Positions 1 through 44,135 of a DNA stretch of 64,000 bases are shown one piece after another. The stretch lies in assembly GCA_030867685.1 (NCBI GenBank), contig JAQOWU010000008.1, positions 744,001 through 808,000 on the forward strand, written 5' to 3'. Source of the DNA: Wickerhamiella versatilis. Its lineage: Eukaryota. Made by a program: the position numbers and the translations under genes. The notes under the pieces were generated by a model. That model ran no database searches. It was not told the DNA's origin and saw nothing but the letters and a program-made list of their open reading frames with translations. Position 1 is the stretch's first letter; every line of letters begins with the position of its first letter.

Positions 1-1
1 G

Positions 2-1501
2 GAAAATACCACGCTCACGTGGTGGCAGCGACTAGTGAAGCACTTGGGAGCCTCGGCCTTCTGCACAGCGCTTTGTATTTTTTGGGCTATTCCTGTGGCC
101 TTTGTTGGTTTCATTTCTCAGCCAATACAGCTCATAAAAGTGTTTCAGAATGATCAAGGTGAGGGCTGGATGAACTGGTTGTTACCAACTTCTCAAGGTG
201 GTAAGTTCCCTGGTGTCCTGTTTGGGCTGATATCCTCTCTGCTACCCACAATTCTACTTGCTGTACTAATGATGTTGGTACCGCCTATCATTCGTAAGGC
301 AGCGAAGATCTCGGGGTGCACCAGCCTGATTGAGGTGGAATATTATACGCAGAATGTTTTCTATGCATTCCAGGTTTGTCTCACATTCCTTGTAGTTACT
401 CTGGCAAGCTCCATTCTACAATCACTATCATCGATTTTAGCAGATCCTGGTACGGTACTGAATATGTTGCACCAGAATTTGCCTGGTGCCTCGAACTTCT
501 TTATCAATTGGATGTTGCTACAGGCATTGACCGTCCCGGCTGGTGGTCTTCTTCAAATGGTTGCTCTTATCCTATTCCATCTCCTTGGTACATTGCTTGA
601 TAACACACCAAGAAAGTTGTGGACTCGTTTCAATGCTATTGGGGGTAATGGGTGGGGAACCACTTTCCCCATATATTCTACAATGGCTACTATCATGTTC
701 ACCTATTCGATCATTGCCCCTATAATAATGCCATTTGCAGCGGTGCTCTTCTTCTTTTGTTACATTGCTTGGATCAACAACTTGACCTTCGTAACTGGTA
801 AAACAAATGGCCGTGGTATATACTATGCTCGTGGGCTAAACCAGCTCTTCGTGGGTATTTACTTAGCTGAAGTGATTCTTATCGTCATGTTTATTTTTGC
901 TAAGACTTGGGGGCCGCTTGTGCTGGAGATTGTGTTCACGCTTTTCACACTTTGGTTTCAACTGCATCTCAATGAAGCATTTTCGCCTCTTCTTTATAGT
1001 CTTCCAAATTCCTTGCTGGAGGGTGGTGATCCATTTGTTGATGCACCAGAGGAGAAGAAACAAACTGAAGAGACCCCTGCCCCCACCGGTGGTCTGGTCG
1101 CGCGTTTCTTCAAACCTCATATCTTTTATACGCCTGAGAATGTAGCAAGAGAGATGCTTACCGATGAGTACTGGAATATGCCACCACAGACAGATGACAA
1201 GGATGAAAGCACTGCGTATCATAATCCAGCAGTTCACGATCCAACGCCATTGGTGTGGTTCCCTGAGGATCCTAATGGTTTTGCTGAGGAACAACTCAGA
1301 GAGCTGACAGAAGCGAAGATTTCAGCGTCCATTTCTGGTGCTCGATGGGAGATCAGTGAGAAGAAGAACAAGAAGAAAGCTAAGATGGTGGTATCTCAAG
1401 AATTATCCGAGAATCCCTTGATCCAGGTTGATCAAGGTAATCAACCTCCTCGTAACGGAACTTCTGGTGCCTTCTTCCTAAATGCTTTCTCTTTCTTGTA
1501 G
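2..1501 (+). CDS. OSCA/TMEM63 (RSN1/PHM7/CSC1-like) membrane channel, 5'-partial
   Basis: Frame is open from the window edge. Many TM helices with family motifs FWAIPVAFVG, LPGASNFF and YSIIAPII, followed by a PHM7_ext-like tail (AYHNPAV...PLVWFPEDP). Confidence 0.85.
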   Translation, partial: ENTTLTWWQRLVKHLGASAFCTALCIFWAIPVAFVGFISQPIQLIKVFQNDQGEGWMNWLLPTSQGGKFPGVLFGLISSLLPTILLAVLMMLVPPIIRKAAKISGCTSLIEVEYYTQNVFYAFQVCLTFLVVTLASSILQSLSSILADPGTVLNMLHQNLPGASNFFINWMLLQALTVPAGGLLQMVALILFHLLGTLLDNTPRKLWTRFNAIGGNGWGTTFPIYSTMATIMFTYSIIAPIIMPFAAVLFFFCYIAWINNLTFVTGKTNGRGIYYARGLNQLFVGIYLAEVILIVMFIFAKTWGPLVLEIVFTLFTLWFQLHLNEAFSPLLYSLPNSLLEGGDPFVDAPEEKKQTEETPAPTGGLVARFFKPHIFYTPENVAREMLTDEYWNMPPQTDDKDESTAYHNPAVHDPTPLVWFPEDPNGFAEEQLRELTEAKISASISGARWEISEKKNKKKAKMVVSQELSENPLIQVDQGNQPPRNGTSGAFFLNAFSFL

Positions 1502-2567
1502 TCTAGCTCGTGCATATACATTTATCAAGTAATTTGTTCTATAATTTCGTCTTAGTTATTTTACCGAAGACATGTTTCTGGATTGGCAATTGTCACCATG
1601 TTCATTAAATTTCTAAGCACAACATGGCTTATTCTTGTTTGACAGTGCTAGGAATTCCTAGCTTTCTGCGAAACTAACGGGATGCCATAGTAGAATCTAA
1701 TCCAATTTCCAAGAGCCTACTGCTGGTGACTCTAAGAGACAAACAGGTAGCTTCTACCTTGAGAGCTTTGCCCATACAGCGCATATCGTATCTAAGTTAC
1801 TAGTAACATGATACTAGCCGATATTCTTCATTCACCATATCTAGAGGTTTCTTTCTGATATATTCAGTATAGCTTTTTCTCATTACTGGTCCAAGAAAGA
1901 AGCTAATTGGGTCATTTCCTGAAGACAGAAGCTTCTGCACGATCATGATGTGAAAAAGCCATACCACCTCAACTCAACCGACCTGCTGATGCTCTGCCCA
2001 CGCTCAAATATTGACTGCGTACACCATAAATCTCTTGTAAATGTAAATGCAAGCTCCAAGAGGACGCGCTACATGTCAGCCAATTATTCCCCTCATTTTA
2101 ATGCAGTATATATGCGTCGTGACATAATTATCAAATTCCAATTCAAATGGGGCTTAGACTCTATAGTATGGTTCGATTAATGCGAGCATCGTGCAAGGTG
2201 AGGATTGATTTCTACGAAAATAGCATGAAATCAGTGATCTACATGTTTTAGGCCTTCTTGACGGAAGACAAGTCGTATCCGCAATAATGTGGGATTATGT
2301 AATAGTACCCTGGTATTAACTCGGGCGCAGTTTCGGCTGGTGTATGGTACCTCTATGCTAATATTAAGACTGAAATCGTTTTGTTTCATTTTATTTGGAT
2401 GTGGGGCCTTCTCTACAAGTGAGAAATGCGTGATGGGTACTATCCGAAGAGTCGAAACGTACTATCTCAGATGCACCTCACCTAAGCATATGCAGGGTGA
2501 ACCCTAATCCCTCTCCACAAACATATATGTCAAAGGTGTTATCCTGATCCATAGTGGTTACTTGCAT

Positions 2568-4184
2568 ATGGTGGGTCTTAAGGAAGAGAAGCTCGATATC
2601 GAGCATGTCGAAGACAACAATTCAGACAGGTCCGGCAACTTTTCTACAGACGATTATAATAGCCATGTACCTGACGACACACAGTACCAATTTCTTGGTA
2701 TGACGGGGAAAAGACTCAGAAATTCGGTCTCTCTAATGGCTGGCATGGGTTTTCTGCTTTTTGGATACGATCAAGGAGTAATGGGATCTTTGCTCACGCT
2801 GAAGTCGTTCAAGGAGACATTCCAAGACATGGATACGTCTAAGGAATTGGATGCAGCTACCAGGTCGAAGAACTCAACTTGGCAGGGATTTGTTGTTGCG
2901 GTTTATGAGATAGGGTGTTTTGCTGGTGCGATTGCAACGATGTATCTAGGTGATAAGCTTGGGCGCCGCAAAATGATTTTTATCGGTTGTATTATAATGA
3001 TTATTGGAGCTGTCATACAAACCGCATCTTATTCAAGTGGCCAACTTCTTGCAGCTAGAATTATTACTGGTATTGGTAACGGTATGAATACCGCGACAGT
3101 GCCGGTTTGGCAAGCGGAGTGCGCGAAACCAGAAGCCCGTGGACGTCTTGTAATGATTGCTGGTGCCCTTATTTCCGGTGGCATCATGATTTCCTATTGG
3201 ATTGATTTTGCTTTCTATTGGATCAAGGAAAATTCAGTTTCTTGGCGGTTCCCCCTTGCGTTTCAAATTTTGTTTCCTCTTGGCATATTACCGTTTATTC
3301 TAAAGATGCCCGAGTCTCCTCGATGGCTTCTTAAAAGAGGGAATACCAAGCAAGCGATCAAAGTTTTCTCCGCATTGGAAGGTACCCCTGCCAATGACCC
3401 AGCTATTCTTGATCAAATCAATCAGGTAGATGAATCTATTGCTGCTGAGCGCCATATAGGCGGAGAGGCGAAGAACGGAATCTACCTGCTATTTACTCAA
3501 GGGAAGCATCGCAATTTTCATCGAGCTATGCTTGGTATTTGGGCGCAAATAATGCAACAAATTTCTGGTATCAATCTTATCACGTATTATGCGGGTACTA
3601 TATTCGAACAGTACCTTGGTATGACTACCACTGTTTCAAGAATTTTAGCTGCTTGCAATGGTACTGAATATTTTATTGCGTCATGGATTGCTTTCTATAC
3701 CATTGAGCGATTCGGTAGGCGCAATTTAATGCTATTTGGGGCTGCTGGTCAGGCTATAACGATGGGAATTCTCACCGGAACGACATGGTACGAGGATAAT
3801 ACATCAGCTCTAATTGCCGCAGTAGTGTTTCTATTCGTTTTCAATACATTCTTTGCCATTGGGTGGCTTGGAATGACATGGCTATACCCTGCAGAGGTAA
3901 CTCCATTGAATGTTAGGGCCCCTGCCAACGGAATTTCAACGGCAAGTAATTGGATCTTCAATTTCATGGTAGTGATGATAACGCCAATCGCTTTTGATTC
4001 AATCAAGTCCAATACTTACACAATTTTTGCAGCTATTAATGCTCTCATGGTCCCCACAGTTTATTTCCTCTATCCAGAGACCTCAGGTAAAACCTTGGAA
4101 GATATTGATAAAATATTCGAGCAATGTGATCCCTGGAAGCCGTGGCAGGTTGTCAGAATAGCAGATGAGTTACCACGCAAATAG
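2568..4184 (+). CDS. MFS sugar porter, STL1-like glycerol/H+ symporter
   Basis: Motifs GFLLFGYDQGVM, GDKLGRR, PESPRWL, QQISGINLITYY, WLYPAEV and YPETSGKTLE. First ATG at 2568. Confidence 0.85.
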   Translation: MVGLKEEKLDIEHVEDNNSDRSGNFSTDDYNSHVPDDTQYQFLGMTGKRLRNSVSLMAGMGFLLFGYDQGVMGSLLTLKSFKETFQDMDTSKELDAATRSKNSTWQGFVVAVYEIGCFAGAIATMYLGDKLGRRKMIFIGCIIMIIGAVIQTASYSSGQLLAARIITGIGNGMNTATVPVWQAECAKPEARGRLVMIAGALISGGIMISYWIDFAFYWIKENSVSWRFPLAFQILFPLGILPFILKMPESPRWLLKRGNTKQAIKVFSALEGTPANDPAILDQINQVDESIAAERHIGGEAKNGIYLLFTQGKHRNFHRAMLGIWAQIMQQISGINLITYYAGTIFEQYLGMTTTVSRILAACNGTEYFIASWIAFYTIERFGRRNLMLFGAAGQAITMGILTGTTWYEDNTSALIAAVVFLFVFNTFFAIGWLGMTWLYPAEVTPLNVRAPANGISTASNWIFNFMVVMITPIAFDSIKSNTYTIFAAINALMVPTVYFLYPETSGKTLEDIDKIFEQCDPWKPWQVVRIADELPRK

Positions 4185-4388
4185 GATGCTGAATGAGCCT
4201 CGAGCATCAATCGTGACCAAATATCCCCTCAGTACAATCAATATTCACATAATTTATCTTAAGTGACGATTTCATGTAATAATTAATCTATTACAGAACA
4301 GCGATAATCTTAGTTACTTGAACAGTTTTTAATGTTTACTTCTATCGTTTTAGACACCTGTTGTAGTCACACTTAACATGTGAGTGAA

Positions 4389-5129
4389 TTACATTGACGA
4401 GGTAATGGTTACAGCGTTGCTTGTGGGTGTCCCACCCCCAGAGCTTACTGTGCTTTCACTGGAGGATTGAGCGGTGATTGTTACAGGATCGGCTGTCACT
4501 ACAGATTGTTGTGCAGCTGTGGTCGATATCCCTGTAATAGAGGAGGCAACCGTAGTCTCAGTGGCACTCATGGATGTAGATACCTCTACAGAGCCCTCAC
4601 TTGTGTAGGTGAGGGTTGACGCGGGATATAAAGTCACAACAACTATTGAAGTTACTGTGGCAATTCCACCTGGAATAGTACTAAAGAAGCTGATGCCGTT
4701 GCCGCCTCCTCCGTTGCCGGCACCACCATTTACTGTAGTCACGGCTTGTGTGGCTGAATTACCCATACCACCAGCTCCTGATCCACCAGAACCTGTTGGA
4801 GCCACAGTTAATGTCGAAGTATAGCCACTTCCTTCCGTTTGTATTGGCAAAGAAGTAGTGTATGTTGCAGCAGTTTGATAGTATGACGCAGAAGAGACCT
4901 CACTGCTGTAATATTGAGTCTGGGTTTGCCCAGGTATAGTTGTGAAATCCGTTTCGGTATATGACATGTCCGAGGTGTAGTATATGGTGGATTGTTGTTG
5001 GCTCTGTTGGCCACCACCTCCGAAATGAAACCAATGGTTATCTACCGCGCTTCCCTCAGGGTCATCACGTTTCTGAAGTAATGGACTGGCGATTGCCAGC
5101 GACAGAAGTGTAGTACCAAAAAAGATCAT
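4389..5129 (-). CDS. Secreted Ser/Thr/Gly-rich protein, probably cell wall or mucin-like
   Basis: Signal peptide MIFFGTTLLSLAIA, Kex2-type KR site, S/T-rich body. TATA-like element near 5155-5168. Confidence 0.7.
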   Translation of the reverse strand: MIFFGTTLLSLAIASPLLQKRDDPEGSAVDNHWFHFGGGGQQSQQQSTIYYTSDMSYTETDFTTIPGQTQTQYYSSEVSSASYYQTAATYTTSLPIQTEGSGYTSTLTVAPTGSGGSGAGGMGNSATQAVTTVNGGAGNGGGGNGISFFSTIPGGIATVTSIVVVTLYPASTLTYTSEGSVEVSTSMSATETTVASSITGISTTAAQQSVVTADPVTITAQSSSESTVSSGGGTPTSNAVTITSSM

Positions 5130-5373
5130 GATAATATGAAGACTAACATCACGCTATACATATAAAAAGGTGGGAAAAAGCCAAACTATAACTAAAATCT
5201 TAACATTCGTGCAAGTTCTGAAGGCAAATAATTAACGGCCCCTACAACGGTTCAAAGCTTATCCACCCTTGAAATCAAAAAAAAAGATTGAAGTTGGCTG
5301 AATATATTACTGCAATCATCTACTCATTGAGGAATCAACGGGCTTATACTTTGAATTACTCAATGAAACCTTA

Positions 5374-8300
5374 TTACAGATAGAGTGAAGAGCAAAATAC
5401 AATGTCACGTTTGATTCGCTCTTGAGCCAATGAAACCTTGTCATAAAGGTCAACGTCACCTATTATGCGAGCTGCAGACATAACTGCCCTGCAAACTTCA
5501 TCCAACCTGTTTATCACACGAACAATTATTCCCTCCTGCACATCTACCAAAGAAGTGATTTCACTAAAGCTCATGCCACGTGCCCATTCATATACCGCGG
5601 CCATCAGCCCAAACCTTCCTCTTTCTGCAAATTCCTCTTCTTCCATGGTGAGAGGTACCTGATTCGCCTCACTTAGGCTGTGGACGTAATTCACGATCTT
5701 GAGAAGCTGGGCTTTTCCACGATCTAACTTTGGCGTGACGTGATCTGCATCTTCAACACCCCTCATGCCCTCGAAAACAAAGGCTGATAATAAAGCGACA
5801 ATCTCCTCAGGTTCATAACTTGCAAGGAAGTTGTCAAGAATAAGTTCCGTGACGTACATTTCAAACCCTGTCGTAATTTCACAGGCAACCCGCCCTTTAA
5901 GAAGTACGTTCAGGTTAGCATCGATGTAATTTGCCTCCTTGAGAACATTGAGTCGTTGTTCATAATCGGGTAGTAGCTCGGTATTTTGTGATACACTCAA
6001 AAGTTTCAGTTGAGACATTTGTTGTTCAAGGTTACCTACCTCACCCGCAAGCATATAGTTCTGACGAATTACGGAACTTTTAGTCCCCTTAATTTGAGGT
6101 ATAACCTGTTCTCGGAGCTTCTTCTCGCACTGATCACGTTTTCCTACCGCTAGTCGAGCTTCAACAGCCTTTGTACTGGTGACATTTATCTCCTCAAAAC
6201 TTTCCCCATTATCTAGCAATAAACGCTGTGCCTCTTTCAATTTTTCTGAATCTACTGTAGGCTCCTTCTTGAGCGAAGCAGCACCGATCACTTCAATATT
6301 GCTAACAGGAACAGAGTCATGGAAACTCTTGCGCATCAAATTTTGCTGTGGAACCTGGGCAAACTCCTGGCTAAAAGGCAATAAAGGAAGCTCATTTTGA
6401 TTTCGCCCCCCATAAGCTAGACGCAAAACAACTAATGGATCACGTCTCGAACTGAGAATCATACCTGCTCGCCTCAGACCTTCTTCGCTGCGGTATATGA
6501 CAAGGTGAGTGCTAAGCTTTTTCGACAACAAAATGTTAGTATATATTTGGGTAGTGAGTTGAGAATATTCCTGACACATATACCATAGGTCAGTATAAAC
6601 TTGAGGCAAAGACTTATATTCCTTTGACTCTTGGAGCTCAACAAGCCTTGATTGGAGTAAGAGCATTTCTTTTTCGCGTTCAGGTCGTAAAGCGTATGTT
6701 GCATTTTCACTGAAACTCTGCTTGATGACGTCCTCAACCTTCACAGCTTCAATACGCAGAAGTGAGAGAATCATGGTGTAGGTTAACCTGAACTGAGATG
6801 ATAATTTTGTAGGTGTTCCAAGAATGACTGATTGCAGCATTGACTGAGGCATCACGCCATCTCCTGTATTGATAATAATCACGGTACCAACTTTGTCAAG
6901 TCCTCGTCTCCCCGCGCGGCCAGCCATTTGGGTATATTCACCAGGAGTCAAGTTACGCATATTCTTTGAATCAAATTTCCTTAAGGCAGAAAACACTACT
7001 GTTCTCGTAGGCAAATTGAGACCCATGGCAAACGTTTCAGTTGCAAAAAGCAGTTTAACTAAACCTTTAGCAAATAAAATTTCAACAACCTCCTTCAGAA
7101 TGGGAAGAAGCCCAGAGTGATGGATGCCTACGCCTCGCATAAGCATTTCACGAAGTATTTGGATTTGCGGTAAGTCTCTGTCTTCCTGCCGCAAGCGTGC
7201 TATCGCTTGGTCAACAAACATATAGACTTCAGCCTTTTCTCGGCCGGTATTTAGTTCCATTGACTGAAGACTACTAGCATGCTGCTCCACCATTTTTCTG
7301 CTAAAAACAAATACAACCGCTGGCAACAATTTTTCTTTTTTCAGGTGAGATATAAGTTCTACAAATGTTGATTTTCCCGGTGCATTATTGTTGAAACGTC
7401 CTCGCTGGGGACCTTGCTGGACCTGAAGGGCTCTATTTCCTGCAGCTCCACCCCGAAGAGTATTTTTACCCCGACCTCTGACAGCCCCTCCACCTCGTGC
7501 ATTATTTCCACCACGAGCATTGGACCCGCCACGCCCTCCGCTCTGTTGCGAATTTTTGGGTGGTTCCGGTGGAGGTGGATTAATATGGTTCGAACATGCT
7601 CGCCATCCAACTTCATTGAATTTCCGGTTTTCATTTACTATCTCAAACATCTTTTTCTTGGCCCAAAGGTAGTGCTTGAGAGGAACAGGCCGTTTGGGTG
7701 TTGCAATAACATAAACATTTTTTTCTTTCGTACGACCAACCCAATTAGCAAACTCAAAGGTGTTAGGTACTGTCGCACTAAGTAATATCAGTTTAACATG
7801 TTCAGGAAGCATAATAATGACCTCTTCCCATACCACACCTCTATCACTGTCATTCACATAATGCACCTCATCAAAAATGATAAACTCCACGTCACGAATA
7901 ATATCTGCCCCTCGGTAAAGCATAGACCGCAGAATTTCTGTGGTCATGATAAGCGTTGTGGCCTCCGGATTTAGCTGCACATCACCTGTTAGAATACCCA
8001 CGTCATCATACTCTCTACTAAAGTCTCTGTATTTCTGATTTGACAATGCCTTGATTGGTGACGTGTAGATGCATTTCGTCATATGTTTTACAGCCATACT
8101 CATAGCATATTCTGCAATCACAGTCTTACCGGCAGACGTATGTGCAGCAACAAAAACAGAATCACCCTGTTCCAGATGAAAGACCGCTTCTTTTTGAAAG
8201 TTATCAAGCTCGAAAGGCCAGGTACGAGCAGGATTGGGGACAAGCTCATTAAAGTTGTCAAATGGTTGATTCACATCAACCATATGAGCCCATTCTTTTT

Positions 8301-9000
8301 TAGCCATAACTGGAGCAGTAGAAGCAGTTTTCCGCATGAAAGTTATGGAATCTGGAAGAAGCGTATCGATCTCTGCATCAGTAGGAGTTTTTGCCGTAGC
8401 CTTAGGCATTACCTCTGTTTCCTCTGAGACGTCCTCCTCATAACGTTCTCCCTCACTATTATCCTCATCCTCATCACTCTCAGATTCATCGGCATCTCCT
8501 GGTGCCATCTCTTTTATATCACTATCTCCAGGTGTGGGCAATGAAAGCCCCCGACTCAAGCCGGGAGCGACGTCGTAAAGACCTTGGTGGCTACGATGCA
8601 AGTCTTTCTTCGATGTTCCATCATGAATTTCGAGCCCGCCAGGCGTGAACGGCATCCTTCCAGAGCGTCCGCGCACTTGATCCTTACGTGCACCCATCTG
8701 GCGGGTCAACGAGAGCGCATGAGCACCACCGGATTCAACGAATGACGGTACGGTTTCCTCTATATGCGTGATGCGACCCTCAAGCCCAACGCGCTTAAAT
8801 TTAAGCTGCGTTTGGCTTTCGTACCCAGGGAGTTGAATTAATTTTTCCAGCACAGCAGGATCATCGAAAGAAAGCTCTGGCTGGAACCTATTAAGCCATT
8901 CAGATGACAAGGCGGGTGATGGCGTCAGAAAAAGCTCCTCTAGAGCATCTTTTTCAGGCACATCCTCCTTGGCCTCTAAATCTCTTACAATAGCGTCCAT
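5374..9000 (-). CDS. SKI2: Ski2 DExH RNA helicase
   Basis: Motifs AHTSAGKT, DEVHY, SAT and QMAGRAGRRG, an RG-rich insert, and DSHCT end IKRDIVFCSSLYL. Confidence 0.95.
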   Translation of the reverse strand: MDAIVRDLEAKEDVPEKDALEELFLTPSPALSSEWLNRFQPELSFDDPAVLEKLIQLPGYESQTQLKFKRVGLEGRITHIEETVPSFVESGGAHALSLTRQMGARKDQVRGRSGRMPFTPGGLEIHDGTSKKDLHRSHQGLYDVAPGLSRGLSLPTPGDSDIKEMAPGDADESESDEDEDNSEGERYEEDVSEETEVMPKATAKTPTDAEIDTLLPDSITFMRKTASTAPVMAKKEWAHMVDVNQPFDNFNELVPNPARTWPFELDNFQKEAVFHLEQGDSVFVAAHTSAGKTVIAEYAMSMAVKHMTKCIYTSPIKALSNQKYRDFSREYDDVGILTGDVQLNPEATTLIMTTEILRSMLYRGADIIRDVEFIIFDEVHYVNDSDRGVVWEEVIIMLPEHVKLILLSATVPNTFEFANWVGRTKEKNVYVIATPKRPVPLKHYLWAKKKMFEIVNENRKFNEVGWRACSNHINPPPPEPPKNSQQSGGRGGSNARGGNNARGGGAVRGRGKNTLRGGAAGNRALQVQQGPQRGRFNNNAPGKSTFVELISHLKKEKLLPAVVFVFSRKMVEQHASSLQSMELNTGREKAEVYMFVDQAIARLRQEDRDLPQIQILREMLMRGVGIHHSGLLPILKEVVEILFAKGLVKLLFATETFAMGLNLPTRTVVFSALRKFDSKNMRNLTPGEYTQMAGRAGRRGLDKVGTVIIINTGDGVMPQSMLQSVILGTPTKLSSQFRLTYTMILSLLRIEAVKVEDVIKQSFSENATYALRPEREKEMLLLQSRLVELQESKEYKSLPQVYTDLWYMCQEYSQLTTQIYTNILLSKKLSTHLVIYRSEEGLRRAGMILSSRRDPLVVLRLAYGGRNQNELPLLPFSQEFAQVPQQNLMRKSFHDSVPVSNIEVIGAASLKKEPTVDSEKLKEAQRLLLDNGESFEEINVTSTKAVEARLAVGKRDQCEKKLREQVIPQIKGTKSSVIRQNYMLAGEVGNLEQQMSQLKLLSVSQNTELLPDYEQRLNVLKEANYIDANLNVLLKGRVACEITTGFEMYVTELILDNFLASYEPEEIVALLSAFVFEGMRGVEDADHVTPKLDRGKAQLLKIVNYVHSLSEANQVPLTMEEEEFAERGRFGLMAAVYEWARGMSFSEITSLVDVQEGIIVRVINRLDEVCRAVMSAARIIGDVDLYDKVSLAQERIKRDIVFCSSLYL

Positions 9001-9057
9001 CCCCGGGACCTGGGAATCTTAGTAACTACATCTCAATGTCTATAAAGCATAATCTCA

Positions 9058-10455
9058 TTAATAGGTATATCTCTTTGGGCGCTTCTGCTCATTCCAATGC
9101 AGTGTTTTACTTAATTGTTGAACCCAGTGAACACTTGTGTAGTCATGAGGCAAAACCTTCGGGAACGGAAACCTCGATGCTGTTATTGTGAGAAAATCTC
9201 CTTGTCGCAGCTGAATACGCTCTTTGCCATCAAATGCTGCATATGCCTCACAGCGAGCATCATAAGGGACACCAATATGAAGAATCATATTATCGGGGAG
9301 TACAAGAGGCCGGAAGCTTAAGGTATGAGGACATATGGGGCTGATTATTGTCGCTGGACAGTCGGGATGCACAAGAGAGCCACCAGTGGACATCGAATAC
9401 GCTGTTGAGCCTGTAGGTGTAGAAACGACAACCCCATCGGCTTTGATCGAGGTAAGTAATTCGTAGTTTCCATATAGCTCGGTCATGGTAATTACTGCGT
9501 TAGGGCCTCTATCAACCACAACATCATTTAAAATCACGTATTCTTCACCTTTAGTGTGGGTTGTGAAATGCGAAGTTAAACCACCTATTTCAATTTCTCT
9601 GCGCAGGGTATCCATATCTCCTTTAGTTGGATTTTTCGAGCGCATAATTGTGCATTGAAATCGCATTCGCAAAGCGCAAGAAATGCCATTCTCAAAATGG
9701 TCGCTCATAATCTCTCGAAAGAAATCAAAGTCATTCTCAGTCATAAACCCTAAGGACCCCAAGCCAAATGACATTACAGGTGGAACTGTTTTCTGGAAGA
9801 GCCACGAGGTATAAAGTACAGTGCCATCTCCGCCGAGCGCGACTATCAGATCACATTTCTCAGGATTATTGCGCAGATCATCCAAGTTCCATAATTTAAG
9901 ACATTTATCAACATTTCTATGAGCTGCAACAAGCTTCTCATAGCCAAAAGCAGGGCGTTTGGCGAGTTCATCTTGGACACTAACCTGAAGCTCCTTGAAT
10001 TGGTTTGATTCTGCTAAACCCAACAGCCAGTCAACCATCTCAGATGCACAACGTGGTAGCGCCTCATCACTTAATTTTGTGACTATAACAATTGATCTGA
10101 TAGATAAATCAAGGCAGACGTTACTCAAGGCTGTACTAATACCTCGAATATTTGTAGCCATCTCACTCAGACGTTCTTTCGAGTCAACCCAGACCATTTC
10201 ACGCTGTACCCCGGACTTGGAACGCTCCCGATGTTGGTTACCGGCGCAAGACATTAGTGATGTGGTACTAGCACTTTGTGTCAAAGGAGGACTAGAAGCT
10301 GCTGATGGTGGAAAGTGCTCACACATTGAGCTTTCCCTCAACTGCGCTTGATTTGCCAACATATTATGGATATAGACCTTCGACGAAGGTCTGCCAAATT
10401 CTTGAGGCATGCTCACCTGGCGTTCCAAGGGAGACGAGACAGCAGGCTGACACAT
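9058..10455 (-). CDS. NAD(H) kinase, Utr1/Yef1 family
   Basis: Motifs LGGDGTVL, LNDVVVDRGP, DGVVVSTPTGSTAYS and PICPHTLSFRP. Confidence 0.9.
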   Translation of the reverse strand: MCQPAVSSPLERQVSMPQEFGRPSSKVYIHNMLANQAQLRESSMCEHFPPSAASSPPLTQSASTTSLMSCAGNQHRERSKSGVQREMVWVDSKERLSEMATNIRGISTALSNVCLDLSIRSIVIVTKLSDEALPRCASEMVDWLLGLAESNQFKELQVSVQDELAKRPAFGYEKLVAAHRNVDKCLKLWNLDDLRNNPEKCDLIVALGGDGTVLYTSWLFQKTVPPVMSFGLGSLGFMTENDFDFFREIMSDHFENGISCALRMRFQCTIMRSKNPTKGDMDTLRREIEIGGLTSHFTTHTKGEEYVILNDVVVDRGPNAVITMTELYGNYELLTSIKADGVVVSTPTGSTAYSMSTGGSLVHPDCPATIISPICPHTLSFRPLVLPDNMILHIGVPYDARCEAYAAFDGKERIQLRQGDFLTITASRFPFPKVLPHDYTSVHWVQQLSKTLHWNEQKRPKRYTY

Positions 10456-10655
10456 ATTCTTCCTGTACTGGCACCCAATTTACTGCTGCAAAGATTGAAT
10501 TGGCGGGTAAAGTACTATAAAATCACGATGCAAAAGTCTTTAAGCGTATCAAAACCATTTAAATGAAGACAAGACGCCAGCATGCAGCTAGCGGTTTCAT
10601 ACGAAACCCGTTTTGTAATTTCTACCTACATTGAAGCTGACACATACTGATATGA

Positions 10656-11804
10656 ATGGGGGCAGTTCCCAGGGTAGTAGTCTTTAAGGACTCAGTATCG
10701 GAAATAGCGCGACTTCGTACGCTATTTTATGGCTCTAAAGAGTCTCAAAGTCGAGCCCTCGCATTGTGTAGAGCCTATGAGGTTCGTGGGGTGCTTCCCG
10801 CAAGTATTCATCTCACTGCGCTTTTAATATCTGCTGTTCACATGGACGTGCCAATGAACGATATGTTTGCGATTCGTCAGACTTATGCCATGGCCTTAAT
10901 TAGATTTGTTAACGAGATTCTTGATGCTGCACAGTTAGGTCGTAATGCAATTCCCTTACATGCCCTAGCTCGCGAGATGGACCTGCCAAATTCTTTTGTT
11001 GAACTGCGCCATGCCGCAACCCACGAGGATTTGCCATCTGCACCTTTGCTTCGTGAAATGGCCCATAGGGCTGTCCATTGGCTTTGGATTAAATATTGGG
11101 CTCTCAACGATGCCCCTCAGGAGCCATCAACACTCATAAACAATAATTCTGATGTTGGAGATGAAGCTCCTCAAGATCGCATAAAAGAAACACTTCGTGA
11201 GTGGCGCCGGTCTCGGCGCCCAGACCCTGAAAATCCCGAACTCACGTACAAAGAGATTCAGCTGGTCGAGACATTGAAGAGAGACCTGCTCATAGATCAA
11301 ACTGCTTTCTTTGAAGTACTGTTTCATCGTAATATACTCGTTCCTGCCGGATCAGGGGAAGTCAGTAAGAAAGGGTCTCCATCTGTCATATTATGGGGTC
11401 CGCTTTTTAGCAAGTTAGGGGAGGACTACCTTGTGTCTCTGGCTGAAAAAATAGCAACGGCTCTTAACAAACAGGATTGGCCGGAAATAGGACCAAGTGA
11501 AAGACAATTCCCGGTGTATATGACCTGGCTCGAGTATCTTATACCCTTGGTGAACAAGCCTATTGCAGCTCTGTCGGCTTTACCCAGGCCATGGAATGCA
11601 ATTCTTCTTAATCTCTATGGACTTCATCATAATCACCAGCCTTCCATCCAGCTAGCACGAGATATGGCAGTCGTAACGGGGACTGAAATCCCCACCATTG
11701 AATTGAAAAAAATACCAGGTTCTGTAAATAATCACAATGAGGATGATAGCGAATCCCCATGGCCACGTGTATCTGAATGGGTGCCTAGGCCTATAGGAGT
11801 ATAA
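10656..11804 (+). CDS. LAS1: Las1 pre-rRNA ITS2 endonuclease (HEPN)
   Basis: YAMALIRFVN, HEPN motif VELRHAATHE, and C-terminal WVPRPIGV. Confidence 0.9.
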   Translation: MGAVPRVVVFKDSVSEIARLRTLFYGSKESQSRALALCRAYEVRGVLPASIHLTALLISAVHMDVPMNDMFAIRQTYAMALIRFVNEILDAAQLGRNAIPLHALAREMDLPNSFVELRHAATHEDLPSAPLLREMAHRAVHWLWIKYWALNDAPQEPSTLINNNSDVGDEAPQDRIKETLREWRRSRRPDPENPELTYKEIQLVETLKRDLLIDQTAFFEVLFHRNILVPAGSGEVSKKGSPSVILWGPLFSKLGEDYLVSLAEKIATALNKQDWPEIGPSERQFPVYMTWLEYLIPLVNKPIAALSALPRPWNAILLNLYGLHHNHQPSIQLARDMAVVTGTEIPTIELKKIPGSVNNHNEDDSESPWPRVSEWVPRPIGV

Positions 11805-11856
11805 AATAGTAGTACATGCTGGATGTTTTTGTACAAGTAAGTAAGCATCGCGAGAG

Positions 11857-13755
11857 ATGAGTAATATTTATATGGCTACCACTTCTGCGGAGGACAGGAC
11901 ATTCTTCGCTGATGGAACCGCTGTCTATCAGAAGACAGTATCCAGAAAAGCTAGCAAGCTAGTAGATGCAGGATTTGTACCTACGGCGATCTCTGTCAAC
12001 AAGAGTTTGTCCCTCATAGCAGTTGGCGGAGCCGATACCCTGGCTGTTTATACTATTTCTGGGAAACTAAAAACCAGCGCTAAAATCAAGTCATCCATTC
12101 AAAAACTAATTTGGCATCCATGTGGCGTTAATGACGCATGTCTCGTAGCATTGTCAGAGTCCGAAGTGCTGGTGTGCTCATGCGCAGCTACTGTCAAAAT
12201 AACAGGGTTCAGCTTGTCCCGTACCCCCAACGCAGAAATTAATATAGCAGATGAGCCACTGGACCCAGTTTCCATCGCATTTGGTCCTCCCAAAGCCGAT
12301 ACAGGGGTAATTTCTTTATATATTGCGACACGAGATGGGGATATCTTCGGTATTTGTCCTTTTGTTCCAGATAAATTCGTGTTGTCGGTAGATCACATGA
12401 AAAAGTTGATCAATTTAAGTCTAGATGACAAAACGACTGAGAAGGAACAATCTGGCTCCAATGGAAGGGAGTTATCGTGGGTTTCAGCAGTGACAAGACA
12501 ACTAGATGGTATGCCAACAACATGGGTTGACGAGCGAGAGGGTTTTATAATAGATGCTCCTCGAAATTATCTGTCTTCGGTTCAAGGGCCATTCAGATTA
12601 TGTCCTTATCCGGAGTCTCTCTACGGTGAGGAAACGGTGGACATCGCCTGTGTGGGAATCGCTAATTCCACTCTTTTAATCCAAGCAACCAAAAACTATT
12701 TGAATTTTTATTTGCAGGCTTCACATCTAAAGTTATCTTGGCAACACGACAAAGAAGTGGAAAGTACCACATTAGCACTCGTCAACTCGGTGAAAGTATC
12801 GTCCAGCTCTGATATAAGAAAACTCATTGTTCCTGGGCCTCAAGGACTTGCATTTCTCGTGAAGCCGGAAAAAATGATATGTGTGGACTACCGCCCTTGG
12901 CAGAGTCTCCTTGCTGAAGCGTTGAAAGGTGGAGAAATCTCAAAGCTTCCACCATCCATCGTTTCAGAAGAACCACTTTCCTTTGTATATGTGAACAACC
13001 TGAACACGGTCTTAATGGAAGACCGGCAAGGAGGAGAAATTAAGGCTTGGGAAACGGCCAAGTCTACCACTAATGATTATGAAAACTTCTCACAAAAGCT
13101 CACAAAATTGCAGGGCATAATAACTAGCCCAGACGACTATAGAAGACAGGTATGCGACGAAGTGAACAGCATTCTTCTGCGTCCAGTGGAGGAATTGCCG
13201 ACTCTGGGTGCAAATCTCCAAACTCTGGAAAAGCTCAATGAGCTCAGTGAATTTTATGGTAGAGGAATAAATGATCTCTCAAAGCAGATAATATTCACTG
13301 AACAGCACATAGAGGCACAAAAAAGGGAGGCTCGTCGCCAAAATGAGGAATTAGCCAGCATCCGAGCCAGAAAACAATCATTAGAGCCAAAGCAGCTTGA
13401 TGAAAAAGTTTCGAGATCCTCCAAACGGCATTCAGAGCTGAAGTCGAGGGTAGACGCACTGTCGCAAAAACTTTCTAGGGCCAGAACTAATGGGAAACCA
13501 TTAGGTCTAGCGGAAAAGCAGTGGTTCTCAGAACTTGAACGCATACAGAACAAAATGAAGGAGTATCAGAGACGTATTGAGGTTCTTGGGACTAATTTTT
13601 CAGCTGTAGGTCCACCCTCGGCGAGTCGACAGGCTGCCTCTTCAACCACTACCGGAGAACGGCCAAGCGATGTGGCTATTGCCGCCCTGCGAAATCAAGT
13701 CAATTTGCAATCTTCCCAGATAAAGAAACTTGAGCAAAAAATTAATGCATTCTGA
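11857..13755 (+). CDS. NUP82: Nucleoporin Nup82/Nup88 family
   Basis: Propeller motifs WHP, LYIATRDGDIFGICPFVP and QGPF, then a C-terminal coiled coil with EKQWFSEL. Confidence 0.8.
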   Translation: MSNIYMATTSAEDRTFFADGTAVYQKTVSRKASKLVDAGFVPTAISVNKSLSLIAVGGADTLAVYTISGKLKTSAKIKSSIQKLIWHPCGVNDACLVALSESEVLVCSCAATVKITGFSLSRTPNAEINIADEPLDPVSIAFGPPKADTGVISLYIATRDGDIFGICPFVPDKFVLSVDHMKKLINLSLDDKTTEKEQSGSNGRELSWVSAVTRQLDGMPTTWVDEREGFIIDAPRNYLSSVQGPFRLCPYPESLYGEETVDIACVGIANSTLLIQATKNYLNFYLQASHLKLSWQHDKEVESTTLALVNSVKVSSSSDIRKLIVPGPQGLAFLVKPEKMICVDYRPWQSLLAEALKGGEISKLPPSIVSEEPLSFVYVNNLNTVLMEDRQGGEIKAWETAKSTTNDYENFSQKLTKLQGIITSPDDYRRQVCDEVNSILLRPVEELPTLGANLQTLEKLNELSEFYGRGINDLSKQIIFTEQHIEAQKREARRQNEELASIRARKQSLEPKQLDEKVSRSSKRHSELKSRVDALSQKLSRARTNGKPLGLAEKQWFSELERIQNKMKEYQRRIEVLGTNFSAVGPPSASRQAASSTTTGERPSDVAIAALRNQVNLQSSQIKKLEQKINAF

Positions 13756-13811
13756 GGCTTCAGAATAATACAAATATATATATCATATCATTATATGCCG
13801 AGGTTTTTAGT

Positions 13812-14090
13812 CTAAAAATCAGTAACTTTGCCATTAAACGAGTAATCTCCATGTCGCAATGGGTCTTGCTTTGGTCCACCAATCTCTCCTGTTTCTGGAT
13901 TCTTCTCACCCTCAAAGTCGGCATATGGCTTGTAATACATCGTTTGATTCGGTTGGTTAACGGCCTCTCGCTGTAGCCGTTCAAATTCCTGCTGCTCCTC
14001 CTTAGGAAGAGGCATTGGGGAAGGCCGGTTCTTAAAGTCAACAGCGTATTTGCGCACCAACCGAGGGGTTTGCCTGAACGTTCGGAGCAT
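13812..14090 (-). CDS. SDH8: Succinate dehydrogenase assembly factor 4
   Basis: Arg-rich mitochondrial presequence and the DUF1674 motif FEGEKNPETGEIGGPKQDPLRHGDYSFNGKVTDF. Confidence 0.92.
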   Translation of the reverse strand: MLRTFRQTPRLVRKYAVDFKNRPSPMPLPKEEQQEFERLQREAVNQPNQTMYYKPYADFEGEKNPETGEIGGPKQDPLRHGDYSFNGKVTDF

Positions 14091-14135
14091 GGTTTCTTTT
14101 CTAATATGACTAATGGATCTAGGGGTTAGTTAGTA

Positions 14136-14244
14136 CTGCATCAGACTTCCAAGGAAGTATTTTGCGGTCACCGGCTCACGATTGGGTTCAGTGTGAGCTA
14201 CCGTGGAAACTGCGAATGTTTAAATGGAAATTTCTTCACCGCAG
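14136..14244 (-). ncRNA. SNR128: U14 (snR128) box C/D snoRNA
   Basis: Minus strand reads CTGCG, GTGAAGA (box C variant), AACATTCGCAGTTTCCACGGTAG (U14 domain A region), GAACCCAATCG...CGGTGACCGC (fungal Y domain), CTTCCTTGGAAGT (domain B), CTGA (box D), TGCAG. Terminal stem CTGCG/TGCAG. Confidence 0.92.
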
Positions 14245-14251
14245 ATACTTA

Positions 14252-14403
14252 CTGGTGGGTTAGTTCTGTCAGACAAAAAGTACTGGCAAGTAAGCCCGAA
14301 CAACGTACAAAGACGAAGCCGAGCAACCTTCGCTATCATCAGAGGCGGATAAGACGATCACTCGAAAACGAGGAAGACGTGGTGTTGTCATCATTCAACA
14401 TAC
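14252..14403 (-). other. Spliceosomal intron (internal, 152 nt) hosting the snR190-like RNA
   Basis: Donor GTATGT 14403-14398, branch ACTAAC 14264-14259, acceptor CAG 14254-14252. Confidence 0.8.
14266..14397 (-). ncRNA. SNR190: snR190-like box C/D snoRNA
   Basis: Box C ATGATGA at 14394-14388 and box D CTGA at 14272-14269. Blocks TTCCTCGT..TTCGA, GTTGCT and CGGG...TTGCCAGT resemble yeast snR190 from memory. It lies directly 5' of U14, as in the yeast snR190-U14 cluster. Ends are approximate. Confidence 0.75.
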
Positions 14404-14521
14404 CTTTTAAGATTTTCACTTCACCACACTATGTGGTGGAAGTGAGGAGTATGACATGTTTGCTGAAAAAATATTTATAATTGACGATGACTAAAGAAAG
14501 TAGCCCATGCTTAGTGAGACG

Positions 14522-44061: not shown

Positions 44062-44135
44062 TGGACATTACCGGAGTCGAACCGGGGACCTCGCGCATGC
44101 TAAGCGCACGTGATAACCAACTACACCAAATGCCC
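44062..44135 (-). tRNA. tRNA-Ala(AGC), intronless
   Basis: Acceptor stem GGGCATT/AATGTCC with G3:U70 and discriminator A. Anticodon arm TGCGC-TTAGCAT-GCGCG. T-loop TTCGACT. Confidence 0.96.

Follow-up and report, generated by a model that had tools for sequence, protein, structure and literature searches.

In metazoan recursive splicing, a 5' splice site is regenerated at a zero-length exon junction after the first splice. The donor G is supplied there by a downstream ratchet site (AG/GT) and the process serves very long introns, which are removed stepwise. At the locus described in this work the donor G comes instead from the upstream exon and two RNAs would be released. Related arrangements have been described in fungi. 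For the snR57-snR55-snR61 cluster of Candida albicans, C. parapsilosis and their relatives, both nested splicing (exon size −1) and recursive splicing (exon size 0) were reported (PMC5033589), and the same source credits the ordered splicing in C. albicans to Mitrovich et al. 2010 (Science 330:838). Exon-loss "complex introns" were also described in fungal snoRNA clusters I-III, with 61 exon-loss events (PMC3596301). A separate body of work concerns stwintrons, where [D1,2] and alternatively spliced [D1,2]/[A2,3] forms were described in Pezizomycotina (PMC5587772) and complex introns in the yeast Lipomyces (PMC12403724, PMC7138796). As for the two snoRNAs considered here, SNR190-U14 is a dicistronic unit in S. 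cerevisiae (PMC8536666, citing Chanfreau et al. 1998), and in cluster V of Neurospora the intronic CD16, which is the homologue of snR190, is linked to CD37, which is U14 (PMC2780460).

We analysed a 64-kb stretch of Wickerhamiella versatilis DNA (the window), for which an earlier note had claimed two snoRNA introns on the minus strand that overlap by a single nucleotide. Each signal of that claim was found where it had been placed, including the overlap at G14252, and the minus-strand order reads AAAAG(14404)/GTATGT…ACTAAC-CCAC-CAG(14252)/TAAGT…TACTAAC-TAACCCC-TAG(14119)/ATCC. All six splice signals are present and no exon lies between the two introns. The internal intron (14252..14403, 152 nt) has its own canonical donor GTATGT (14403-14398), branch site ACTAAC (14264-14259, branch A at 14260) and acceptor CAG (14254-14252), and is supported by 276 reads that join exon 1 to 14251. 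G14252 is common to this CAG and to a GTAAGT donor that is present in the unspliced RNA (14252-14247). The remainder of the external intron (14119..14251), which is delimited by the sequence and by read joints, consists of TAAGT (14251-14247), three bases, U14, one base, the branch site TACTAAC (14135-14129, branch A at 14130) and the acceptor TAG (14121-14119), after which ATCC starts at 14118. The internal intron is inserted directly after the first base of the external donor, in the order G14404, 14403-14252 and TAAGT. G14404, as base 1 of the external donor, would adjoin TAAGT after the first step and leave with the U14 intron. The external intron measures 134 nt with G14404, and an equal 134 nt can be excised from the unspliced RNA with G14252.

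The spacer that runs from box D of the first snoRNA to the start of U14 is only 25 nt long and is formed almost entirely by branch point, acceptor and donor, with four bases between box D and ACTAAC. The composite motif ACTAAC-N(3-12)-YAGTAAGT was found once in the 64-kb window when both strands were searched; in dinucleotide shuffles the mean was 0.01 matches, with 1 of 100 shuffles giving a match. A loose intron scan of the 64-kb window was too permissive and no species consensus was obtained from it. The signals are also well preserved between strains. The strain from which the RNA reads were derived differs from the window strain by ~2%, with 18 fixed single-base differences over 1051 bases. 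Only one of these falls within the 286 nt of the twin intron (14119-14404), at position 14122 where the TAG is kept, compared with eight in the 279-nt DUF1674 ORF downstream, and none was found at G14404 or in 14264-14247. A diverged and shorter block was observed in the read strain beyond 14426, around the start site, next to the almost invariant twin intron.

The first intron carries a box C/D snoRNA of the snR190/CD16 family (14263..14400, minus strand). Box C (ATGATGA, 14394-14388), box D (CTGA, 14272-14269), a C' box UGAUGA near 14334 and a conserved 3' element, TTACTTGCCAGTA, upstream of box D were identified. The earlier note had expected covariance models to recognise both snoRNAs, and for this one no Rfam family was matched, even at E<=10 on 176 bases. 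We therefore turn to our own covariance model, R1, which was built from 26 U14-linked fungal snoRNAs (alignment A1) after removing copies >90% identical and truncated copies, with the window sequence left out. R1 finds 14400-14263 on the minus strand with 43.5 bits (E 7.9e-10) over model positions 1-124, which is the full model, and this score is to be read with the fact that a 7-mer shared with the first snoRNA of the window served to select the 26 training loci. The next-best match in the 64 kb reached 8.7 bits. By blastn, the 3' part of the snoRNA is 92-96% identical over 25-27 nt to fungal U14-linked loci. In the snR190/CD16 family, box A is the antisense element for helix 73 of 25S rRNA and box B the one for domain I. 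At the box-A position the alignment of the window's snoRNA to R1 is imperfect (UCUUCCUCGUUUUC compared with the consensus UCUUCUUUUCC) and D' looks degenerate, which has also been described for yeast snR190 (PMC8536666, PMC3116282). The name "snR190-family" thus appears well founded, as judged from its position and its homology to the U14-linked fungal family. At 14264 (minus strand), three reads in each of two poly(A) runs, X13 and X14, join the end of this snoRNA to unrelated letters, which presumably resemble the antisense of large-subunit rRNA. A chimera formed in the library could account for these joins, which would then mark the mature 3' end of the snoRNA, ~5 nt beyond box D.

U14 (14137..14243, minus strand) is recognised by Rfam SNORD14 (RF00016) over the full model (1-111) with 52.4 bits and E 2.6e-9, although the gathering score of 64 is not reached. 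Its box C is the variant GTGAAGA (GUGAAGA in the RNA, 14238-14232). The 18S-complementary element ACATTCGCAGTTTCCAC is found at 14219-14203, and the 3' part contains TTCCTTGGA and box D (CTGA, 14144-14141). Compared with the SNORD14 consensus, the sequence is exact in both conserved elements and box D, namely in ACAUUCGCAGUUUCCAC and in UUCCUUGGA-GUCUGA. The identity of U14 is secure in substance despite the score below gathering. The expectation of model support thus holds for U14 through Rfam and for the first snoRNA through R1, and fails for an Rfam snR190 family. No other Rfam snoRNA was found in the 64-kb window. The only family to reach its gathering score in the window was a tRNA gene at 44062-44135 on the minus strand (Rfam tRNA, 49.5 bits).

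The twin introns occupy the 5' UTR of a gene for a DUF1674 protein, which belongs to the SDHAF4/Sdh8-type succinate dehydrogenase assembly factor family. The 92-aa ORF (13812..14090, minus strand, with its ATG at 14090) was assigned by Pfam PF07896 with E 6.2e-16 and 59 bits, where the cut-off is 23.5. Exon 1 (14405..14437, minus strand) is non-coding, ~33 nt long and without an ATG, and its letters were found joined to 14253 and to 14118 in the reads. Its 5' end was placed at ~14437 from reads which extend 10 letters past 14426 and then show a constant adapter-like tag (71 reads in X13 and 43 in X14); it is given as +/-2 because the read strain has indels there. A putative promoter element of the host transcript, the TATA box TATAAATA (14472..14479, minus strand), lies ~42 nt upstream of this mapped 5' end and ~43 nt downstream of the stop codon (14522) of a same-strand ORF of the subtilase family (Pfam Peptidase_S8). 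Given this distance, the 3' end of the subtilase gene and the promoter of the snoRNA host must overlap. Read depth was observed to be low over the 3' part of the subtilase gene.

Exon 2 begins with a 28-nt leader without an ATG (14091..14118, minus strand), and the main poly(A) site is taken to lie where reads begin, at 13775/13776. The ATG-free leader is a property of the fully spliced form, since retained introns add upstream ATGs to it. For example, a short uORF (ATG CAG TAC TAA, 14141-14130, minus strand) overlaps box D of U14 and the branch site, and a long one (14394-14269, minus strand) extends across the first snoRNA from its box C to its box D. Another cluster of tagged 5' ends was observed at 14100-14102 on the minus strand, 11-13 nt upstream of the DUF1674 ATG, with 53+17 reads in X13 and 39+7 in X14 (116 in all). 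These ends may represent a start of the DUF1674 mRNA of its own inside the host unit, or else a processing or decay end. In addition, T runs were found before 14081 in 19 reads of X13 and 19 of X14, which points to polyadenylation 9 nt inside the ORF. Part of the host transcripts may thus stop 37 nt beyond the start of exon 2, as non-coding snoRNA precursors.

The splicing of this locus was followed in four RNA runs which carry the same species label and represent two studies and at most three samples. X10 and X11 are random-primed runs of one sample while X13 and X14 are poly(A) runs. Owing to the strain differences, parts of exon 1 often appear as "loose ends" rather than as joints; exon 1 of the read strain carries an additional base behind 14408 (plus strand). 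The intermediate predicted by the earlier note, 14404^14251, in which exon 1 is joined to TAAGT with the U14 intron retained, was observed in all four runs with 276 reads (97 in X13, 166 in X14, 5 in X10 and 8 in X11). These reads align to 14253 and continue into exon 1 of the read strain (TTTAAAGATTTTCACTTCACC…), so that the RNA reads …AAAAG/TAAGT…. The placement has a 2-nt ambiguity as A and G fit both sides, and GT..AG borders are obtained at 14404^14251 only. Unspliced RNA running from exon 1 into the first intron appears to be represented in poly(A) RNA by about 83 and 55 further reads, as estimated from the insertion at 14408.

The final junction, 14405^14118 (AAAA/ATCC, without the G), had likewise been predicted and was observed with 22 reads in three of the four runs, a call which depends on how the aligner's treatment of the strain's 1-nt insertion is read. 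In X13, ten reads join 14118 to 14405 with 286 nt skipped and three more join 14118 to 14409, and X14 gave six of the former. In X11, three reads run from 14118 into TTTTAAAG… (TTTTAAAGATTTTCAC). The final joints carry one T between their two sides which, together with a T>A at 14408 (12 and 8 reads), is the extra base of the strain. On the plus strand, exon 2 is followed directly by TTTT in these reads, and the C that would be expected from a kept G14404 was found in none of them. The one-step junction 14404^14118 (AAAAG/ATCC), whose exclusive use the earlier note had named as evidence against its proposal, was absent among the joints and loose ends listed, beyond which 15 further loose-end rows could hide rare one-step products; such a product would align onward through 14119-14120.

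Removal of the U14 unit with the tail of the first intron kept was observed in ten reads, seven as a joint and three as a loose end. The joint runs from 14118 to 14253, skips 134 nt with GT..AG ends on the minus strand, has up to 64 letters on its shorter side and occurs twice in X10, four times in X11 and once in X13; the three loose ends, all in X10, show letters of exon 2 ahead of 14253. In the random-primed runs this reverse first step accounts for 9 reads compared with 13 for the main intermediate, while in the poly(A) runs once-spliced RNA accounts for 263 reads compared with 19 for the final form. Some reads also start within the second intron: five molecules in X10 start at 14119, and 39 (X13) and 37 (X14) molecules start at 14128, two nucleotides downstream of the branch A. 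The former would be expected at the 3' end of a removed intron, and the latter from a lariat whose tail has been trimmed back to the branch. No lariat or branch-point reads were seen in the four runs.

We observed both junctions and the loss of the G from the end product, and both snoRNAs were identified. The GTATGT donor cannot account for the loss of G14404, which requires a cut between A14405 and G14404, at a GTAAGT which exists there only after intron 1 has left. Together with the abundant intermediate, it supports an ordered two-step route with a rebuilt donor that yields two snoRNA lariats in the DUF1674 5' UTR, which we consider very probable. In this route, the short non-coding exon 1 (about 14437-14405) would be transcribed from the TATA-box promoter and the spliceosome would excise 14403-14252, which releases the snR190-family snoRNA in a lariat of its own. 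The join would set the exon-final G14404 before TAAGT and rebuild GTAAGT. In the second step G14404 would then be excised together with 14251-14119, which releases U14 in a second lariat and leaves …AAAA/ATCC…. The lariats would presumably form at A14260 and A14130, and the snoRNAs would probably be freed by debranching and exonuclease trimming. The 5'-to-3' order may stem from transcription, which reaches the first acceptor 134 nt ahead of the second. The ordered two-step splicing proposed by the earlier note is thus borne out by the intermediate and by the G-less product but not as a strict order, as the ten reverse-first reads show that the 5'-to-3' order is preferred and not absolute. Since exon 2 starts with A, the acceptor lost in the reverse first step is not rebuilt, and we take removal of U14 first as a minor or dead-end branch.

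The large excess of the intermediate over the final form in poly(A) RNA means either that the second step is slow or that much of the RNA never takes it. The latter leads to a different account, in which splicing of the second intron is a side route, exonucleases produce most of the mature U14 from a once-spliced and often early-ending transcript, and the TAAGT…TAG unit mostly behaves as retained sequence. The 263 once-spliced reads against 19 final ones agree with this account, although steady-state read counts do not measure flux through the second step. It would also explain poly(A) addition 37 nt into exon 2 (the T runs before 14081, 19 reads in each of X13 and X14), and the coding mRNA could have an independent source in the tagged 5' ends at 14100-14102 (116 reads). 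S. cerevisiae, moreover, makes both snoRNAs without splicing from a dicistronic precursor (PMC8536666), but the 25-nt spacer found here is too small for an RNase III stem. The G-less final product nevertheless exists (22 reads), TACTAAC and TAG are intact in both strains, and the read starts at 14119 and 14128 fit excised or trimmed introns. We consider this account unlikely.

The ten reads of the U14-first step, and the GTAAGT that is intact in the unspliced RNA, bear on whether either order could be productive. After removal of the U14 unit, intron 1 would then have to be spliced to the next TAG (14112-14110), located 16 nt beyond the branch A once the U14-first join is made; both snoRNAs would still be freed and the leader would differ. 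Two-way processing of this kind is described for cluster II of Candida parapsilosis, but there a one-base G exon rebuilds the acceptor (PMC5033589), whereas exon 2 starts with A here and the acceptor is not rebuilt, unlike in the [D1,2]/[A2,3] stwintron (PMC5587772). The expected joint 14109->14404 was absent among the joints listed at a threshold of 3 reads, and we give this possibility little credence. It is even harder to uphold a single long intron (14403-14119) removed in one reaction, with the internal signals as relics of a lost exon. The outer GTATGT and the TACTAAC…TAG are perfect, and Luo et al. considered a single donor with alternative acceptors for their own data (PMC3596301). A one-step cut would however keep G14404, which the final product lacks, the one-step junction was absent among the joints listed while the intermediate was abundant, and two snoRNAs held in one lariat would be inseparable by exonucleases alone. 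This last reading is highly improbable, and the ordered two-step route with a rebuilt donor is retained in what follows.

To place the locus among other fungi, metagenome contigs were scanned with a pattern of two conserved U14 elements, which gave 111 loci with 116 matches. These loci are mostly from filamentous fungi, with some animal- or plant-like U14 genes, and no close yeast relatives were found among the 111. In many of the fungal loci a box C/D snoRNA is located 170-540 nt upstream of U14; the locus counts omit loci without GCCAGTA <=900 nt upstream of U14 and copies >90% identical. Among 36 non-redundant fungal loci (spacers <90% identical), a simple signal search predicted an exon of 48-393 nt between the introns in 35, while the exon of the remaining locus was not resolved by this search. 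In 31 of the 36 filamentous-fungal loci, the distance from box D of the upstream snoRNA to the start of the first branch-like motif is 45-56 nt. In the window, the branch site starts 4 nt after box D, and 3 nt separate the donor hexamer from U14. Judged from these sequence comparisons, the W. versatilis locus is in a strongly compacted, derived state, in agreement with exon loss as proposed by Luo et al. and by Mitrovich et al., the latter as cited in PMC5033589. A DUF1674 protein was found near U14 in none of the 111 metagenome loci (tblastn, E<=1e-3), and the association of U14 with this gene is therefore lineage-specific and not general.

The upstream snR190-type snoRNAs of filamentous fungi were also observed to share an invariant 12-mer, TACTTGCCAGTA, 8-11 nt upstream of box D, with the variants TACTAGCCAGTA or TGCTAGCCAGTA in a few loci, and a conserved GTCTTCTTTTCC element before D' (alignment A1). 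The distance between the 12-mer and box D is too large for a standard methylation guide, and this 12-mer may correspond to the additional conserved element of snR190 described in PMC3116282.

Compared with the Candida snR57-snR55-snR61 cluster, the W. versatilis locus likewise has adjacent snoRNA introns with a common G, one snoRNA per intron and RNA-seq support. As in the nested splicing described there, the donor of the next intron is lost when intron 1 is removed and is restored with a G from the upstream exon (PMC5033589). The G common to the two snoRNA introns found here, together with the regenerating G at the end of the upstream exon, corresponds to the −1-exon state of nested splicing. 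It differs from the published Candida cluster in that the pair is an snR190-type snoRNA with U14, the intermediate predominates, and there is no one-base downstream exon which could rescue the reverse order (PMC5033589). The G-donating mechanism is thus already in print and no new mechanism is involved here; the locus is a well-supported new example of a splicing arrangement described in other yeasts.

The locus also compares closely with the [D1,2] stwintrons, in which the external donor is interrupted after its first base by an internal U2-type intron, and two consecutive reactions proceed through a detectable intermediate (PMC5587772). Here, the intermediate without the internal intron (276 reads) and the mature RNA without the donor G (22 reads) were both found. 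Strict dependence of the external intron on prior removal of the internal one was not found, as G14252 completes a GTAAGT and ten reads are reverse-first. In this respect the locus resembles the [D1,2]/[A2,3] stwintron, whose units overlap by one G in the same way, although the [A2,3] alternative is not available here. The stwintrons described in PMC5587772 lie in coding sequence without snoRNAs, whereas both units here are functional snoRNA carriers. We found no description of a snoRNA-bearing stwintron in the literature searched; the stwintron paper that mentions snoRNAs does so in passing only.

With the clusters described in PMC3596301 the locus shares juxtaposed snoRNA introns without exons, for which stepwise 5'-to-3' removal was followed there by ESTs and RT-PCR. 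Neither U14 nor snR190 occurs in that paper. In the zero-length cases it presents, stepwise removal and use of alternative acceptors were not separable, and the 1-nt scar found here separates the two. The snR190/U14 pair itself has the same order and is co-transcribed as in S. cerevisiae and in cluster V of Neurospora crassa (PMC8536666, PMC2780460). The S. cerevisiae unit, whose U14 is essential, is intronless and relies on endo- and exonucleolytic processing (PMC8536666), unlike the W. versatilis locus, whereas in N. crassa both CD16 and CD37 are intronic (PMC2780460). An snR190-U14 pair in the −1-exon state was not found described in the running text of the literature searched.

The −1 geometry leaves a one-base scar, the lost G, in a natural locus, and short reads alone can therefore tell splicing at a rebuilt donor from use of a distal acceptor. 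The doubt about successive acceptors raised by Luo et al. (PMC3596301) is answered here because that alternative would keep the G. The locus also links two literatures that rarely cite each other, one on stwintrons and the other on the "nested" splicing of snoRNA clusters, and its extreme compaction bears on how snoRNP and spliceosome assembly share an intron. It is possible, though we advance it only tentatively, that the shared-G twin intron goes beyond a relic of exon loss and acts as a kinetic gate in a dual-purpose locus. If so, transcripts from the upstream promoter would be mainly snoRNA precursors, with a fast first splice, a slow second one and poly(A) addition at 14081, and a few percent of them would become coding mRNA. 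The SDHAF4-type mRNA would then come mostly from a start of its own at 14100-14102. Such a gate would uncouple the output of U14 and snR190 from the expression of a mitochondrial assembly factor, and the locus would represent a protein-coding 5' UTR in the course of capturing, or of being abandoned by, a snoRNA host unit.
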